IMG/VR virus record: IMGVR_UViG_3300032293_001310
Coordinates: 17,404-81,403 of that record
DNA from: a virus
Length of the DNA: 64,000 nucleotides
Reading direction: 5' to 3' (one strand)
This document shows, one piece after another, positions 5,947-61,025 of this stretch. Each line of letters opens with the position of its first letter. Position 1 is the first letter of the stretch. The position numbers and the translations under genes are program-made. The notes beneath the pieces are model-generated. The model searched no databases and was not told where the DNA came from. It saw only the letters and a list, made by a program, of their open reading frames with translations.

Positions 5947-6510
5947 ATGCATATACTCCTAAAAACTCTATTAAAAGAAGTAGAAGAAAAGTCTCCCTTA
6001 AAATATCAAATGTATGTGGATATGGACGGAGTTCTTGTAAATCTTGATAAAGGGTTCAAGGCAGTTTCTGGTGGATTATCTCCAAAGGAATACGAAGATA
6101 AAAATGGTAAAAACACTTTTTGGAAAGTAGTAAATAAAAATCCCAACTTCTGGCTTGAGTTAGAACCATTACCAGATGCTAAAGTTTTGTGGGACTATAT
6201 AAAAGATACGTTTGAAGATCCTCCTGCGGTTGTGTTGAGTGCTGGACAAGGAAATAAAATAACAGAACAAAAAACTGCGTGGATACGTAAGCATATAGAT
6301 CCCAGTGTCAAAGTCATCATAGCAAAATCTGGCATTAAAAAATCGGAATATATTATTGACGGCGCGGGTACTAAACTTACTCATATACTACTTGATGATA
6401 CAGACAAGAATATAACTGCTTGGGAAAATTCCGGTGAAAATAGAATTGCTATTTTACATAAAGATGCGGCGAGCAGCATAAATAAGATTAAACAGATTGT
6501 GTCTGTATGA
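5947..6510 (+). CDS. HAD-superfamily 5'(3')-deoxyribonucleotidase-like protein
   Basis: DMDGVL motif I, K..W, LLDD..N..W motif IV. Confidence 0.8.
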   Translation: MHILLKTLLKEVEEKSPLKYQMYVDMDGVLVNLDKGFKAVSGGLSPKEYEDKNGKNTFWKVVNKNPNFWLELEPLPDAKVLWDYIKDTFEDPPAVVLSAGQGNKITEQKTAWIRKHIDPSVKVIIAKSGIKKSEYIIDGAGTKLTHILLDDTDKNITAWENSGENRIAILHKDAASSINKIKQIVSV

Positions 6511-54614: not shown

Positions 54615-55016
54615 ATGTATACCGCTGTTGTATTAGACGAAAAATCGCATCTAAAGTTAGTCAAATGGGCAGATGACAATATCAAGCTAAATGGCGTTAG
54701 ATTGCCTATTCTTGTGCGTGATAATGGCTGGGAAATGTTTTGCCATCATATGACCATAAGTATGGGTAATGCTCCTGAGTTTATAAAACAATATCTTGGC
54801 AGCAAGCAAAAACTTGATATTACTCATTATGGTATCAGTGACAAGGCTATTGCGGTAAGAGTAGTTGGTTTTTATAGCAAGAATACTATACCGCATATTA
54901 CGGTTGCAGTAAATAGGCGAGATGGCGGCGAGCCTATAGATAGCAACAAAATAACAAACTGGACGCCAGTTGATGGGTTAGTTACACTAAGTGGCGAAGT
55001 AAAAGAGGTATCATGA
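54615..55016 (+). CDS. 2H phosphoesterase (tRNA-ligase CPDase-like)
   Basis: Two H-x-T motifs: HMTI and HITVA. Confidence 0.75.
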   Translation: MYTAVVLDEKSHLKLVKWADDNIKLNGVRLPILVRDNGWEMFCHHMTISMGNAPEFIKQYLGSKQKLDITHYGISDKAIAVRVVGFYSKNTIPHITVAVNRRDGGEPIDSNKITNWTPVDGLVTLSGEVKEVS

Positions 55017-57319: not shown

Positions 57320-58342
57320 ATGGACCGAAAACTGGCATCTATTCAACTTATCAAAGAACTGAACCCTATAACTGGAGCAGATGCTATTCTTTGTGCCAAA
57401 GTTCTTGGTTGGGAATGTGTTGTAAAAAAGAATGAATTTCGGCCCAATGACAAATGTGTGTATTTTGAGATTGACTCTGTACTTCCTATCGCAAGTTGGA
57501 ATGATCATTTGCGTAAAGAGCCAAATAAACCATTGAGAATCCGTAGCATAAGATTGAAAAATCAACTATCACAAGGATTGGCACTTCCACTTTCTATTCT
57601 ACCCCAAGGCGAATATGAAGTTGGGCAGGATGTTACATCGCTTGTTGGTGTTGAAAAATATGAACCTGTTGTGCCTGCTCATTTGAGCGGAATTGTCAAA
57701 GGAAACTTTCCATCTTTCTTACATAAGACAGATGAAGTTCGTCTGCAATCTGAACCAAATGTGCTTGTTGAAGCAAGCAATAAAGGATTGGTGCTTATTG
57801 GCACACTAAAGATGGATGGCACAAGTTTTACAGCATATCGTCGTGATGATGAGTTTGGTGTATGCTCTCGCAATCTCAACCTGAAAGAAACAGAAGATAA
57901 TGCTCATTGGAAGATGGCTCGCAAGCTCAAACTTGAAGAGATTCTTCGCAGTGAAGAACGTAATCTGTGTATTCAAGGTGAAATGGTTGGGCCGGGCATA
58001 CAAGCAAATCGTCTTGGGCTCAAAGAGATTGACCTATATCTTTTCAATCTATACGACATTGATAGTGGCAAATATCTCAACAGAGAAGATTTGATTAGTT
58101 TTGGCAAGAAACATAACATCAAGATTGTAGATACTGTACATAGTCTTCAACTTGGTAATGATTTTGTGCCTAATAGTGTTGATTATTTTTTGAGTATTGC
58201 CAATGAACTGAACTACTCCAACGGTACTCCCGCTGAAGGTATTGTTTGGCGTCCAAGCGTTGAAACATACAGCGATGTATTGAAGGGCCGTCTATCTTTT
58301 AAATGCATATCAAACCGCTTCTTGGAAAAATACAAAGAATGA
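57320..58342 (+). CDS. ATP-dependent RNA ligase, DRB0094/Rnl2 family
   Basis: RKLASIQ, YFEIDS, SQGL, KTDE.R.Q, motif I KMDGTS, QGEMVGPGIQ, EGIVWR, SFKCIS. Confidence 0.92.
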   Translation: MDRKLASIQLIKELNPITGADAILCAKVLGWECVVKKNEFRPNDKCVYFEIDSVLPIASWNDHLRKEPNKPLRIRSIRLKNQLSQGLALPLSILPQGEYEVGQDVTSLVGVEKYEPVVPAHLSGIVKGNFPSFLHKTDEVRLQSEPNVLVEASNKGLVLIGTLKMDGTSFTAYRRDDEFGVCSRNLNLKETEDNAHWKMARKLKLEEILRSEERNLCIQGEMVGPGIQANRLGLKEIDLYLFNLYDIDSGKYLNREDLISFGKKHNIKIVDTVHSLQLGNDFVPNSVDYFLSIANELNYSNGTPAEGIVWRPSVETYSDVLKGRLSFKCISNRFLEKYKE

Positions 58343-58554
58343 AAAACGCATACGCAGAACATCATTTCGCTGAAAATGAACGACTTGTTCATATTCCTAC
58401 GGGAAAAATGGCGACATATACAGGTACAAGAAAACAAGTAAAAGGCATACAGTTTGACTATATCAAGTTTGATGACGGCCAAACTTTCTTTTATTATCCG
58501 TATGAGATAACTGAAAGGTTTAGGCGGTTATACAATAATGAAAAAAGTACTTGA
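58339..58554 (+). CDS. Hypothetical protein
   Basis: ATGA overlap with the ligase stop. Confidence 0.6.
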   Translation: MKNAYAEHHFAENERLVHIPTGKMATYTGTRKQVKGIQFDYIKFDDGQTFFYYPYEITERFRRLYNNEKST

Positions 58555-58596
58555 CGTTTGATTATTTCTACTTCATAGTTATATTTATAGTAAGAA

Positions 58597-58713
58597 ATGA
58601 ATAGCACATCACATCTACAGTATAGCAATATAAGCTCCAATTGGGGTCGCTGCTTTATCGTACAACCATCCATTGGAGCCGCCGAAGGCGATACAAAGGA
58701 GGGTGTGGCTTAA
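58597..58713 (+). CDS. Putative 38-aa leader peptide MNSTSHLQYSNISSNWGRCFIVQPSIGAAEGDTKEGVA
   Basis: ATG 7 nt after a TATTTATA box; contains all 20 amino acids; stop overlaps the antiterminator strand. Confidence 0.6.
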   Translation: MNSTSHLQYSNISSNWGRCFIVQPSIGAAEGDTKEGVA

Positions 58714-58776
58714 AGGAGAAAAGTAAATTTTCCAACCTATAAAGCCCCACCCCTAAAAAAGGTGGGGTTTTTATTT
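58698..58776 (+). promoter_or_regulatory. Terminator/antiterminator (attenuator) switch
   Basis: Terminator GCCCCACC(58744-51)/GGTGGGGT(58761-68) with T-tract; GGGTGTGGCTT(58701-11) pairs 10/11 with AAGCCCCACCC(58742-52). Confidence 0.65.
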
Positions 58777-58797
58777 GGAGAAAAATGAAAATAGTGT

Positions 58798-58845
58798 TTG
58801 ACAAAGTATAAAAAGTGTGTAGAGTGTTAGTCGTTCTTTAGAAAA
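58798..58845 (+). promoter_or_regulatory. Sigma70-like promoter followed by boxA-like antitermination element
   Basis: TTGACA-N16-TAGAGT then GTTCTTTAGAAAA, similar to rrn boxA. Confidence 0.6.
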
Positions 58846-58852
58846 ATCAATT

Positions 58853-59135
58853 TTGTTAGGGATAGAGGTAAAAGCGCACCTATTTAAGCGTTAAAATAGC
58901 CACCGGACTCATAATAGAGAGGACCGTTTTGTGGGAAGCAAATCAACAAGTTTAGGATAGGATAGTGACAGAGATAACTTGTTGTGAGCACGAAGTGAAT
59001 ATATTGTTCTTATAAATGAAAGAATATATCAATAAGATGGGTAATCAACCCCGTTGAGATATATTCTTTTAGTGTTCCGAGTTTTTACAAACCTCCACGC
59101 GGTTCGGAATGGGAAATACGTAGTATTACGTATTT
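58853..59135 (+). ncRNA. Unassigned structured RNA (~280 nt)
   Basis: No ORF; stems at 58944-52/58976-84, 59019-30/59058-69, 59075-80/59104-09 and 59114-22/59127-35. Confidence 0.5.
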
Positions 59136-60012
59136 GCTAATTGTAAATATTTTAATTTGAGTAATTGTTGGTTATATTTTTTAACCACACTCTAACAGGT
59201 GCATCCAATTTTGTTTCAATGCGTTTATAGCAAGGTTTTTGTATTGTGTGAAGAAAATCGGGCGTGGGATATGCCTTGCCACCACCGTGCATATAACATA
59301 TAGTTCTAATTTTGCCCTCTAAATGCATACACGCTGATGGAAATATGTACTCTTCAAATGTCAGAAATGGAGATTCTACATTCTCATCAAAATGAAATTT
59401 ATTGTCTATATCTGAAACAAATTTTATGGTACTATATTTCATAGTCAGTCCTTCGTGCCAATGTCCGTATATTTTAGAGATGCCATGATCTCTTAATACG
59501 CCTCTTATTTTATTGTTTGCATATATTCCCTTCCACCATACCCACCTAAGATTGCCCTCTTCGACGATATACTCAGGAATTTCTGGCTTACCTCCAAGAA
59601 AGTCGCTAGTCATTTCTCTATGAAAATATGATGTAGACGCCATTATAATAAAATCTCGGGATATTATATTTTGTTCTTGGCAATATTGAAAATTTCGTAT
59701 GTGTCCCATAGCCAAACTAATATTATACGTGTTTTTGGGAAAAGGATTTGATAAGTGGCAATTTTTAAATTCCGAGATTTTGTCTTGCAAATTGTCGTAC
59801 ATATATTGATTTGGACCCAACACTACGGCAATATTGAAATTACGATTGTAATAATATAAGTTTCGCAGTGTATCAAGTATTACGTCGGGGGCTTCATGAA
59901 CTGTGTATGAATAAATTATATCAAACATATAGTTAAATATAATTTATTGTCTACATAGCATAATTAAATTATATCAAAGTAAGCAAAAATACGTATTTGC
60001 TAATTGTAAATA
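59127..60012. repeat. 23-bp direct repeat TACGTATTTGCTAATTGTAAATA flanking an inverted gene
   Basis: Identical copies at 59127-59149 and 59990-60012. Confidence 0.85.
59152..59928 (-). CDS. Hypothetical protein, possibly glycosyltransferase-like
   Basis: 258-aa ORF; VHE..., EEYIFPS loosely resemble GT14/core-2-like proteins. Confidence 0.6.
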   Translation of the reverse strand: MFDIIYSYTVHEAPDVILDTLRNLYYYNRNFNIAVVLGPNQYMYDNLQDKISEFKNCHLSNPFPKNTYNISLAMGHIRNFQYCQEQNIISRDFIIMASTSYFHREMTSDFLGGKPEIPEYIVEEGNLRWVWWKGIYANNKIRGVLRDHGISKIYGHWHEGLTMKYSTIKFVSDIDNKFHFDENVESPFLTFEEYIFPSACMHLEGKIRTICYMHGGGKAYPTPDFLHTIQKPCYKRIETKLDAPVRVWLKNITNNYSN

Positions 60013-60063: not shown

Positions 60064-60384
60064 ATGGCAGATGATAAAGACCTAATAAGAGAGTTTTTAA
60101 CTGGCGGATGGCTGGTAGCACTAATAGGTGCGGCGGGCATGGTCGCAAGATTGCTAACAGACGAAAGTAAGATGCCGTGGGTAGAACAACTCAAAAAGAT
60201 ATTTGCTGCTTCTATATGCTCTATAATAGCGTGGTTTATGTTGGAACAAACTGACATAGCCAGCCTTACCAAAGCAATAATATATGGTGTTGTTGGTGTA
60301 ATATCACCTGAGTTATTACAAGGATTGGCAAGATTAGCAAAGCAAGTATCCAAAAACCCAGAAAAGTTTATCAAAAAACGATGA
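60064..60384 (+). CDS. Putative holin
   Basis: 106 aa, three hydrophobic helices, basic C-terminus. Confidence 0.65.
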   Translation: MADDKDLIREFLTGGWLVALIGAAGMVARLLTDESKMPWVEQLKKIFAASICSIIAWFMLEQTDIASLTKAIIYGVVGVISPELLQGLARLAKQVSKNPEKFIKKR

Positions 60385-61025
60385 AATCAAAACATGCTAT
60401 TATCGCGATGCTTTTTATTGTGGCCATATTTGTGTCAAAAGGTTTGTATACAAGTTCAATGCTGCGTTCAAAGATTGACCATTCGTATAAAGAATTTGAA
60501 GTTGTAACAAACACACTTAGTCCGCTTTTTGATTCATATGGTCTGGCATTGGTGGATAGTCAAGTCAAAGTTTCTCACGACCTTATTACTATAGACCAGT
60601 TTAGAAACATACTAACAAAAACATTACAACAGCAGAACATTTTGCTGGATACATACAAGAGAAGTGTATCCGGTGTTGAAACAATAGATGACAAAGAGTT
60701 GTTTATTCGCACACAACGTGTAACGGAATTTATCAAAAAGATACAAGTATTGACTGTACGTGGAGATATAAAAGAAATACATAATCAATTATACAATGGC
60801 GAAATGTATCGTGTGATAGATCCAGTCACAGAAATCATAAACAAGATACTGGAAAACAAGTTTGATGCTGCTGAAAAATCAAGAAAAATAGCTTTAGACG
60901 AGTTGGTAGCATATGAAAAAGTAGTATATTTCACTGCGGCCTTGACAATTATACTGGGTGTGGCATTATTCAGGTGTAAAGACGATTGTAATGTACGAAA
61001 AAAAGTCCGTAGAAGGAAGAAATAA
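60381..61025 (+). CDS. Two-TM membrane protein with extracytoplasmic helical domain
   Basis: N- and C-terminal TM segments flanking ~150 helical residues; basic tail; coupled to the holin. Confidence 0.65.
   Translation: MKSKHAIIAMLFIVAIFVSKGLYTSSMLRSKIDHSYKEFEVVTNTLSPLFDSYGLALVDSQVKVSHDLITIDQFRNILTKTLQQQNILLDTYKRSVSGVETIDDKELFIRTQRVTEFIKKIQVLTVRGDIKEIHNQLYNGEMYRVIDPVTEIINKILENKFDAAEKSRKIALDELVAYEKVVYFTAALTIILGVALFRCKDDCNVRKKVRRRKK

Follow-up and report, generated by a model that had tools for sequence, protein, structure and literature searches.

In enterobacteria, the leaders trpL, hisL, pheL, leuL, thrL, and ilvL contain runs of a regulatory codon and control the biosynthesis of the corresponding amino acid. 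At ermCL, bmrB-bmrCD, vmlR, and toiL-topAI, generic slowing of ribosomes on a short leader open reading frame (ORF) is what turns on downstream expression; leaders of the ermCL type control bacterial resistance or stress genes, some of them via translation or Rho and not via an intrinsic terminator. The leader of whiB7 (wblC) in Mycobacterium smegmatis is broader, its upstream ORF (uORF) encoding 19 of the 20 amino acids and the switch being activated by hits that relate to 18 of them (Poulton et al., PMC10274678). Deletion of the single Trp codon of this uORF, or of its His codons, abolishes the matching response, and loss of the start codon raises read-through (PMC10274678). Here, we describe a candidate leader of this broad kind in an uncultured freshwater phage, namely, a 38-codon ORF at positions 58597-58713 (+) of a stretch of 64,000 nucleotides (nt) from the virus record IMGVR_UViG_3300032293_001310 (hereafter, the window, which is the last part of an 81.4-kb contig and has a G+C content of 38%). 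We propose that this ORF and the terminator behind it probably constitute a ribosome-dependent transcription attenuator, heading an array composed of a noncoding RNA (ncRNA), a ribozyme, and tRNAs, and reporting general decoding capacity. The structural side of this proposal, comprising a leader ORF that appears to be translated, its antiterminator/terminator pair, and its location in front of an RNA/tRNA cluster, is well supported by the comparison of related sequences; translation itself, the direction of the response, the sensitive codons, and the physiological trigger are what we infer from it.

Among the described systems, the mycobacterial whiB7-type attenuator with its broad uORF is the closest, and the classical trp/his family fails on the regulatory codons, since the phage leader has no run of any one codon. 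As at whiB7, an upstream ORF, here predicted to be translated, is followed by a terminator and an antiterminator, and the sequence varies while the switch is kept. Stalling within the whiB7 uORF gives read-through, and the same is proposed for the phage leader. Unlike the phage unit, the whiB7 switch is bacterial, controls the gene of a transcription factor, and has an Ala-enriched uORF tied to alanine starvation and antibiotic stress, whereas the phage unit heads an ncRNA/ribozyme/tRNA array, shows no enrichment in any residue, has a strong promoter after its terminator, and lacks sequence homology to whiB7. With pheL-type leaders (for pheL, passages in PMC3082878), it would share a short leader, mutually exclusive helices (possibly 1:2, 2:3, and 3:4), an intrinsic terminator, and the masking of the antiterminator strand by a ribosome at the stop codon. 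It differs from the enterobacterial leaders in having no run, in encoding 18 to 20 kinds of amino acid, and in preceding RNA genes. Given this breadth and the lack of a codon run, the switch most likely reports the general speed of decoding (the supply of charged tRNAs, ribosome function) and not the availability of one amino acid.

The leader ORF (38 codons and a TAA) encodes MNSTSHLQYSNISSNWGRCFIVQPSIGAAEGDTKEGVA, which comprises all 20 amino acids and uses 30 different codons, exactly as listed in a first-pass annotation of the window. That annotation also placed an intrinsic terminator downstream, and we located it at 58741-58776 (+), with an 11-bp stem (58741-58751 / 58761-58771), a 9-nt loop, and a T-run; a terminator is present in all homologues. 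The last codons of the ORF had been said to form a helix incompatible with this terminator, and they do: 58701-58711 (+) (GGGTGTGGCTT; hereafter region 2, the 5' strand of the antiterminator), which spans the last base of codon 35, codons 36 to 38, and the first base of the stop codon, pairs at 10 of 11 positions with 58742-58752 (+) (AAGCCCCACCC; region 3), a segment common to the antiterminator and to the 5' arm of the terminator, of which it makes up most. The antiterminator encloses an inner hairpin at 58714-58738 (+), consisting of AGG/CCT (58714-58716 / 58736-58738) and GAAAA/TTTTC (58718-58722 / 58728-58732). When the 3' arm of the terminator is withheld, every variant folds region 2 on region 3 around a two-tier inner hairpin, the antiterminator domain reaching -17 to -29.5 kcal/mol and the terminator alone -13 to -21 kcal/mol. 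Complementarity of 10/11 to the 5' arm of the terminator (±4 nt) arose in 22 of 3,000 dinucleotide shuffles (0.7%) of the upstream 134 nt. As for the composition of the leader, the probability of meeting 20 kinds of amino acid in 38 residues is 2.3% under uniform usage, and 20 kinds were found in 28 of 27,511 windows of 38 amino acids (aa) from the long ORFs of this phage (0.10%) and in 1 of the 251 small ORFs (≤38 aa) of the genome, in agreement with an initial guess of a few percent and less under real composition. Both the completeness and the complementarity are thus unusual, and neither is decisive for one sequence chosen by eye, so that the weight must come from relatives.

Relatives were sought with an 83-aa gene and the RNA ligase as protein anchors, by pattern scans for leader motifs in IMG/VR and metagenome contigs, and with an anchor confined to the ncRNA. 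A total of 28 distinct full-length leader peptides were obtained from freshwater phage contigs, and all units have the same order of promoter, ATG, ORF of 37, 38, or 43 codons, inner hairpin, and terminator. The ncRNA-anchored scan, which is blind to the leader, recovered a leader ORF in 15 of 16 distinct upstream stretches, the sixteenth being just 362 nt long. In the L003 type, found with identical sequence in contigs from four metagenomes and flanked by proteins about 93 to 94% identical to those of the window, the leader is a 23-codon ORF (MNSRPNSSNYQIAQWGDYGVGVA) with 13 kinds of amino acid, in which the start, the end, the promoter, the antiterminator, and the terminator are retained. 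Behind the leader, every relative with enough downstream sequence has a tRNA array on the same strand, in line with the annotated position of the leader at the head of an ncRNA/tRNA region, and nearly all match a core motif resembling that of the hepatitis delta virus (HDV) ribozyme. The downstream order in relatives is one or more TTGACA promoters, an ncRNA of about 240 nt, the HDV-like ribozyme core (about 360 to 530 nt after the ORF core; the motif is unmatched in L017 and L099), a holin-like gene of 106 to 110 aa, a tRNA-Gly gene (same strand; about 760 to 1500 nt separate the first one from the leader core), and the tRNA array, which amounts to as many as 26 tRNAs for 18 amino acids in L048 and to 21 for 17 in L075. 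It had been suggested to look, upstream of tRNA clusters in related phages, for leaders that keep both a covarying pairing and a complete set of amino acids while their sequence diverges; the pairing does covary, and the kinds of amino acid number 18 to 20 in the full-length variants and 13 in the 23-codon variant.

The pairing was assessed on 29 sequences (26 distinct) realigned to a covariance model of the antiterminator conformer. Since such an alignment leans towards the structure of the model, we put most weight on clade C, which lay outside model building, and on controls in which the pairing partners were slid; on a plain MAFFT alignment, RNAalifold found the antiterminator with almost no covariation, bulge and mismatch columns being misaligned. 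Over the 26 distinct sequences, 84.3% of the antiterminator cells are paired, versus at most 60.6% when the partners are slid. Both-side changes affect 37 cells, versus 15.1 ± 2.7 in shuffles (0 of 500 reaching the observed value), and the covariation score is 0.231, versus 0.121 ± 0.012 in shuffles (again 0 of 500) and at most 0.117 when slid. Clade C has GGCAU:AUGCC for the GGCUU:AAGCC of the window and AAGGUG:CACCUU for its GGGUG:CACCC (U-A to A-U and G-C to A-U), and in the apical stem of the inner hairpin, all four pairs change on both sides across clades. The L099 terminator has a wholly different stem (CCCGCC/GGCGGG), and upstream of this new stem a perfect GGGUGUGG:CCACACCC helix is still found; in L017, region 2, region 3, and the 3' arm of the terminator change together; and L003 has UGGUG:CACCA, the A of which lies in the terminator loop. 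Several of the covarying positions are thus outside the terminator stem, which argues that the antiterminator is selected in its own right. Furthermore, except in L017, the leader stop codon falls on the 3' edge of region 2, so a terminating ribosome must cover or unwind the antiterminator strand.

The reading frame of the leader is kept open. Indeed, frame 1 contains no internal stop in 24 distinct nucleotide variants of the ORF (counted before the last clade was found, the full-length peptides totaling 28), versus one to five stops in frames 2 and 3; as roughly 4.6% of all single-base changes would introduce a stop, the probability of meeting none over the 106 or more inferred changes is about 0.0065. 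The ORFs of 37, 38, 43, and 23 codons differ by whole codons, with conserved start and stop, and the stretch between the stop and the terminator varies by any number of bases. The peptide itself appears relaxed: the minimal numbers of changes at codon positions 1, 2, and 3 are flat (33, 35, and 38), and the pairwise ω (ratio of nonsynonymous to synonymous substitution rates) is 0.4 to 1.0 in the leader, versus 0.09 to 0.15 in the adjacent RNA ligase for the same genome pairs. In these pairs, the synonymous rate (dS) is 0.7 to 0.97 in the leader versus 1.8 to 2.2 in the RNA ligase, and this low value points to synonymous sites constrained as RNA. Taken together, an open frame, a relaxed peptide, and a low dS indicate selection on the frame and on the nucleotides, not on the peptide. 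An open frame laid over a functional RNA, with the peptide free to vary, is what a regulatory leader ORF should look like, and from these sequence data we infer that the leader is translated. Folding predicts a central hairpin (P1) within codons 13 to 28 (58634-58679 (+)) for the window and also for most relatives, in which its middle and apical stems differ in sequence. Two metatranscriptome contigs overlap the unit, one of 202 nt (X19; 58767-58968, at least 99% identical) with the 3' half of the terminator, the second promoter, and half of the ncRNA, and one of 246 nt from a relative (X20; 58483-58723) with the end of the 83-aa gene and the leader ORF; at their depth of 2 to 4, contigs from RNA libraries cannot reveal starts, ends, or even transcription, and they are not used as evidence.

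In the mechanism that we propose, transcription would start at the conserved promoter at 58551-58589, and the 38-codon ORF would be translated from a short leader devoid of a Shine-Dalgarno (SD) site. The last codons of the ORF would provide the 5' strand of the antiterminator (58701-58711 with 58742-58752), the formation of which would consume the 5' arm of the terminator. A ribosome that keeps pace with RNA polymerase as far as the end of the ORF would cover or unwind this strand, so that the terminator would form and an RNA of about 185 nt would be released. With a ribosome that is late, stalled, or absent, the antiterminator would form first, and transcription would continue into the ncRNA, the ribozyme, the holin-like gene, and the tRNAs.

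Several observations weigh against this scheme. The full-length RNA of the window type favors the terminator at equilibrium at every ribosome position, and the read-through state must therefore be kinetic. When a ribosome footprint was placed codon by codon, the terminator won at nearly every position in the window, L083, L091, L048, and L003 types, and the antiterminator won until the last 10 codons or so in L075, L084, and L099; equilibrium folding cannot decide a kinetic switch, and we dropped it as a test of the signaling codons. The ribosome-free state may either terminate, as at trp, through a 58686-58694 / 58703-58711 hairpin, or read through, as at whiB7. In addition, a conserved strong promoter stands directly behind the terminator, so the switch is not the sole control and read-through can only add transcription, and in the window a 258-aa gene on the (-) strand (59152-59928) and two (+) genes (60064-61025) separate the switch from the tRNAs.

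Whether the breadth of the leader is itself selected is a separate matter. The first-pass annotation regarded the ORF as a candidate sensor of nearly the whole tRNA pool, and in its full form this reading is that of a census of tRNAs evolved for counterdefense: selection would keep every amino acid in the sensitive part of the 38-codon frame, and the loss of any one tRNA, for example, to a host anticodon nuclease, would delay the ribosome and raise both the near-complete tRNA set of the phage and the ribozyme-released RNA. The composition is certainly broad, since 13 of the 28 full-length variants have 20 kinds of amino acid, 14 have 19, and 1 has 18, when only about 1% of the 38-aa windows in the proteins of this phage reach at least 19. 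Moreover, residues present once move between clades (Tyr at 4, 9, and 14; Arg at 10, 18, 19, 27, and 32; Cys at 19 and 27), Leu too changes position between clades, the tRNAs of the L075 and L048 arrays behind the leader cover 17 to 18 amino acids, the upstream genes include one for an RNA ligase, and whiB7 offers a precedent for the sensing of single codons. Naive column shuffles gave P values of 0.0001 (17 sequences) and 0.015 (7 clade representatives), shared ancestry being ignored in both. This significance was rejected after columns had been simulated independently on a UPGMA (unweighted pair group method with arithmetic mean) tree, with their own rates and state frequencies: under this phylogeny-aware null, which is generous and rests on a rough tree, P was 0.06 with a random root and 0.29 with a 20-kind ancestor (null mean of 19.21 kinds, observed 19.43). 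On present data, the completeness of the leader can be explained by descent. Indeed, 14 kinds are carried by 21 conserved columns, and, as seen from the flat codon positions and the low dS, conservation is largely at the nucleotide level. The 13-kind L003 leader, despite its 23 codons, keeps the switch. A ribosome on about the last 5 to 10 codons covers the antiterminator strand, so that Lys, encoded in the window only at codon 34, cannot signal there and Asp, encoded in every full-length variant only at codon 32 (33 in clade C), is borderline; the concern voiced at the outset about these two codons was well founded, both lying within 5 to 7 codons of the stop, where the ribosome covers part or all of the strand. 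The 8 tRNAs of the contig read 12 of the 37 non-start codons of the leader, about the share expected from the proteome; this matching of leader codons to phage tRNAs was uninformative, the larger arrays being too complete to discriminate. Finally, nothing ties the locus to anticodon nucleases, the link proposed on account of the nearby RNA ligase being a conjecture. We therefore retain the broad composition from the initial claim, and we consider an evolved census that counters tRNA-targeting defense rather unlikely. If the leader is a working attenuator with a long sensitive stretch, a broad response would follow from its composition, whether or not that composition was selected.

Two further explanations dispense with a general report on decoding. 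In the one, which we judge distinctly unlikely, the leader is a narrow attenuator in which only a ribosome stalled over region 1 (58686-58694 (+), AGGCGAUAC; P-site at about codons 27 to 30, Gly-Ala-Ala-Glu) frees region 2, or else a specific ligand causes arrest of the ribosome by the conserved W..F.QP..GA..GD peptide; the remainder of the ORF would then be a spacer of incidental variety. Region 1, a possible anti-antiterminator strand, does pair with 58703-58711 in the local minimum free energy (MFE) fold of the window type, and this hairpin is paired in 84.6% of the cells over the 26 distinct sequences, versus at most 46% when slid; all changes are one-sided, however, the three of clade C remaining paired via G-U, with no compensation on both sides, and for the L071, L075, and L084 types, folding that includes the terminator still yields the antiterminator as the MFE structure. 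The block GGAGCC....AAGGCGAT hardly varies, but this holds at third codon positions too, which, together with an ω of 0.4 to 1.0, speaks for a constraint on the RNA rather than on the peptide. The candidate control codons contain no repeated amino acid, and their positions 27 and 30 vary freely. A likeness to arrest peptides of the TnaC/SecM kind (SKW..F.., I.Q..G) was entertained and set aside, the relaxed ω, the invariant third positions, and the L003-type peptide, which is without the motif altogether, all arguing against it. The other explanation does away with the switch: the unit would be autonomous, either a microprotein gene or a dual-function small RNA (sRNA) of about 185 nt, with an ordinary terminator that also ends the RNA ligase operon, and regions 2 and 3 would be complementary for RNA stability or folding only. 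In favor of this, a promoter and a strong terminator belong to the unit itself, and the next gene is served by a separate promoter. The terminator also persists in the MFE fold of the full-length window-type RNA, and attenuator RNAs are capable of trans activity as sRNAs, as is rnTrpL of Sinorhizobium (passages in PMC6614838). Yet a helix that competes with the terminator and nevertheless covaries with it, outside its stem as well and even where the terminator has been replaced, is hard to explain without alternation, and the nearly unconstrained peptide without a Pfam or PHROG family, as well as the stop codon, which in every type except one coincides with the 3' edge of region 2, also disfavor an autonomous unit, which we regard as very unlikely. 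A ribosome-dependent attenuator reporting general decoding capacity thus remains our preferred reading.

The start of this presumed attenuator resembles that of other genes of the phage. A consensus scan recovered the TTGACG promoter that had been annotated at 58551, in a sigma-70-like promoter region at 58551-58589 (+) composed of TTGACG (58551-58556), a spacer of 17 nt, CATAGT (58574-58579), and a TATTTATA box (58582-58589) located, as had also been noted, 7 nt before the ATG. TTGAC, CATAGT, and TATTTAT are kept across the leader homologues, and the region is predicted to be active and to contain the transcription start site. The leader ORF has no SD site, which is normal for this phage, SD-like motifs preceding 12 of its 71 long ORFs versus a background of 14%; the AGGAG after the leader stop codon is part of a hairpin and not a ribosome-binding site. 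Genome-wide, many genes start 0 to 37 nt after a box of the TATTTATA type, an arrangement suggestive of a promoter motif peculiar to this phage and of 5' leaders that are very short or missing. In having a TATTTATA box and no SD site, the leader start resembles those of bona fide genes in the phage.

Directly behind the terminator, the consensus scan placed a second promoter (58798-58825 (+), TTGACA-16-TAGAGT), which is conserved in relatives, with several tandem TTGACAG copies in L017, and which would drive the ncRNA independently of the switch, a bypass already pointed out in the initial caveats. To reconcile the two controls, one may conjecture that the leader promoter, perhaps by way of its TATTTATA box, is used at another stage of infection than the downstream promoters. 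The first product past the switch would be an ncRNA of about 240 nt (58832-59073 (+)), the 5' end of which is deduced from the promoter and the 3' end from the cleavage site of the ribozyme. It has no match among Rfam families and is 99.4% identical in the L003-type relatives, the flanking proteins of which are about 93 to 94% identical, and its block ATAGCCACCGG...GACCGTTTTGTGGGAA is so broadly conserved that it can anchor a search. At the 3' end of the ncRNA lies a predicted self-cleaving HDV-like ribozyme (59074-59148 (+)), which matches the Rfam models RF02682 and RF01787 over their full length, below the gathering thresholds (29.1 bits for a threshold of 44 and 27.5 bits for a threshold of 37, respectively). 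All helices of the nested double pseudoknot can be written on its sequence (P1 GUUCCGA/UCGGAAU, P2 UUUACAA/UUGUAAA, P3 ACC/GGU, and P4 AUACGUA/UACGUAU), with the catalytic C in J4/2 (GCUAA); L084, L046, and L091 match at the same relative place, and P1, P2, and P4 covary between clades. If this ribozyme does cleave, the ncRNA would end in a 2',3'-cyclic phosphate, with a gene for an RNA ligase nearby. In L017, ARAGORN called a tRNA-Lys(CUU)-like gene (6118-6196) at about the place of the ribozyme in other clades, a call that the Rfam tRNA model did not report; RNase P cleavage at this gene might replace the ribozyme cleavage there.

Farther downstream, the ribozyme and the holin-like gene are separated by the 258-aa (-) gene at 59152-59928, for which neither Pfam nor PHROGs gave a match and which looks like an insertion because it is missing at the same place in the L003-type relatives. 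The holin-like gene (60064-60384 (+)) encodes a membrane protein of 106 aa with a weak match to Pfam Phage_holin_3_3 and a PHROG holin match at 3.5e-06, and in L003 and L017 a homologue of it follows the ncRNA and precedes the first tRNA-Gly. The distal target of read-through would be the array of 8 tRNA genes that runs to the end of the contig (61041-63700 (+)). Upstream of the leader, the annotated RNA ligase was corroborated by a Pfam RNA_ligase and a PHA02142 OB domain. The gene annotated as a 2H phosphoesterase (54615-55016 (+)) has two HxT/S motifs (HHMTIS and PHITVA) but no match to Pfam or to a named PHROG, just a weak match to a PHROG of unknown function, and profiles thus do not confirm this assignment. 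Scans against Pfam and PHROGs gave no family for the leader peptide, the 83-aa protein, or the 258-aa protein. The L003-type relatives contain an inserted gene (4294-4890 in L003) for a Gly/Pro-rich protein of 138 aa with a signal-peptide-like start, which has its own copy of the leader-type promoter and is situated between the 83-aa gene and the shortened 23-codon leader. The contig derives from an uncultured freshwater phage, and nearly all DNA sequencing runs in which the stretch occurs are metagenomes of lake water. A blastn search of 58300-59200 against a GenBank collection of phages gave no DNA-level match, and the best tblastn match of the RNA ligase in that collection is 44% identical, so that the collection offers neither a cultured relative nor a host for the phage. 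The label of jumbo phage given to it is unsupported for this 81-kb contig, and contigs of relatives reach 297 kb.

To our knowledge, the regulation by a phage of its own tRNA array is essentially unstudied, and full-text literature searches returned no published account of such leader control of phage tRNA arrays. Phage tRNA genes have long been discussed as a codon supply and, lately, as a means of escape from tRNA-cleaving defenses (passages in PMC10264068 and PMC10802454). A conserved, translated leader with a terminator at the head of tRNA arrays would mean that the phage gauges the decoding capacity of the cell and adjusts its tRNA and ncRNA output; were the leader in addition a selected census of tRNAs, it would amount to a phage-encoded feedback loop for translational self-sufficiency. 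The unit is self-contained within about 230 bp and hence directly testable in a coupled transcription-translation system. Such a leader would be the logic of amino acid operon attenuation applied to the translation apparatus itself.

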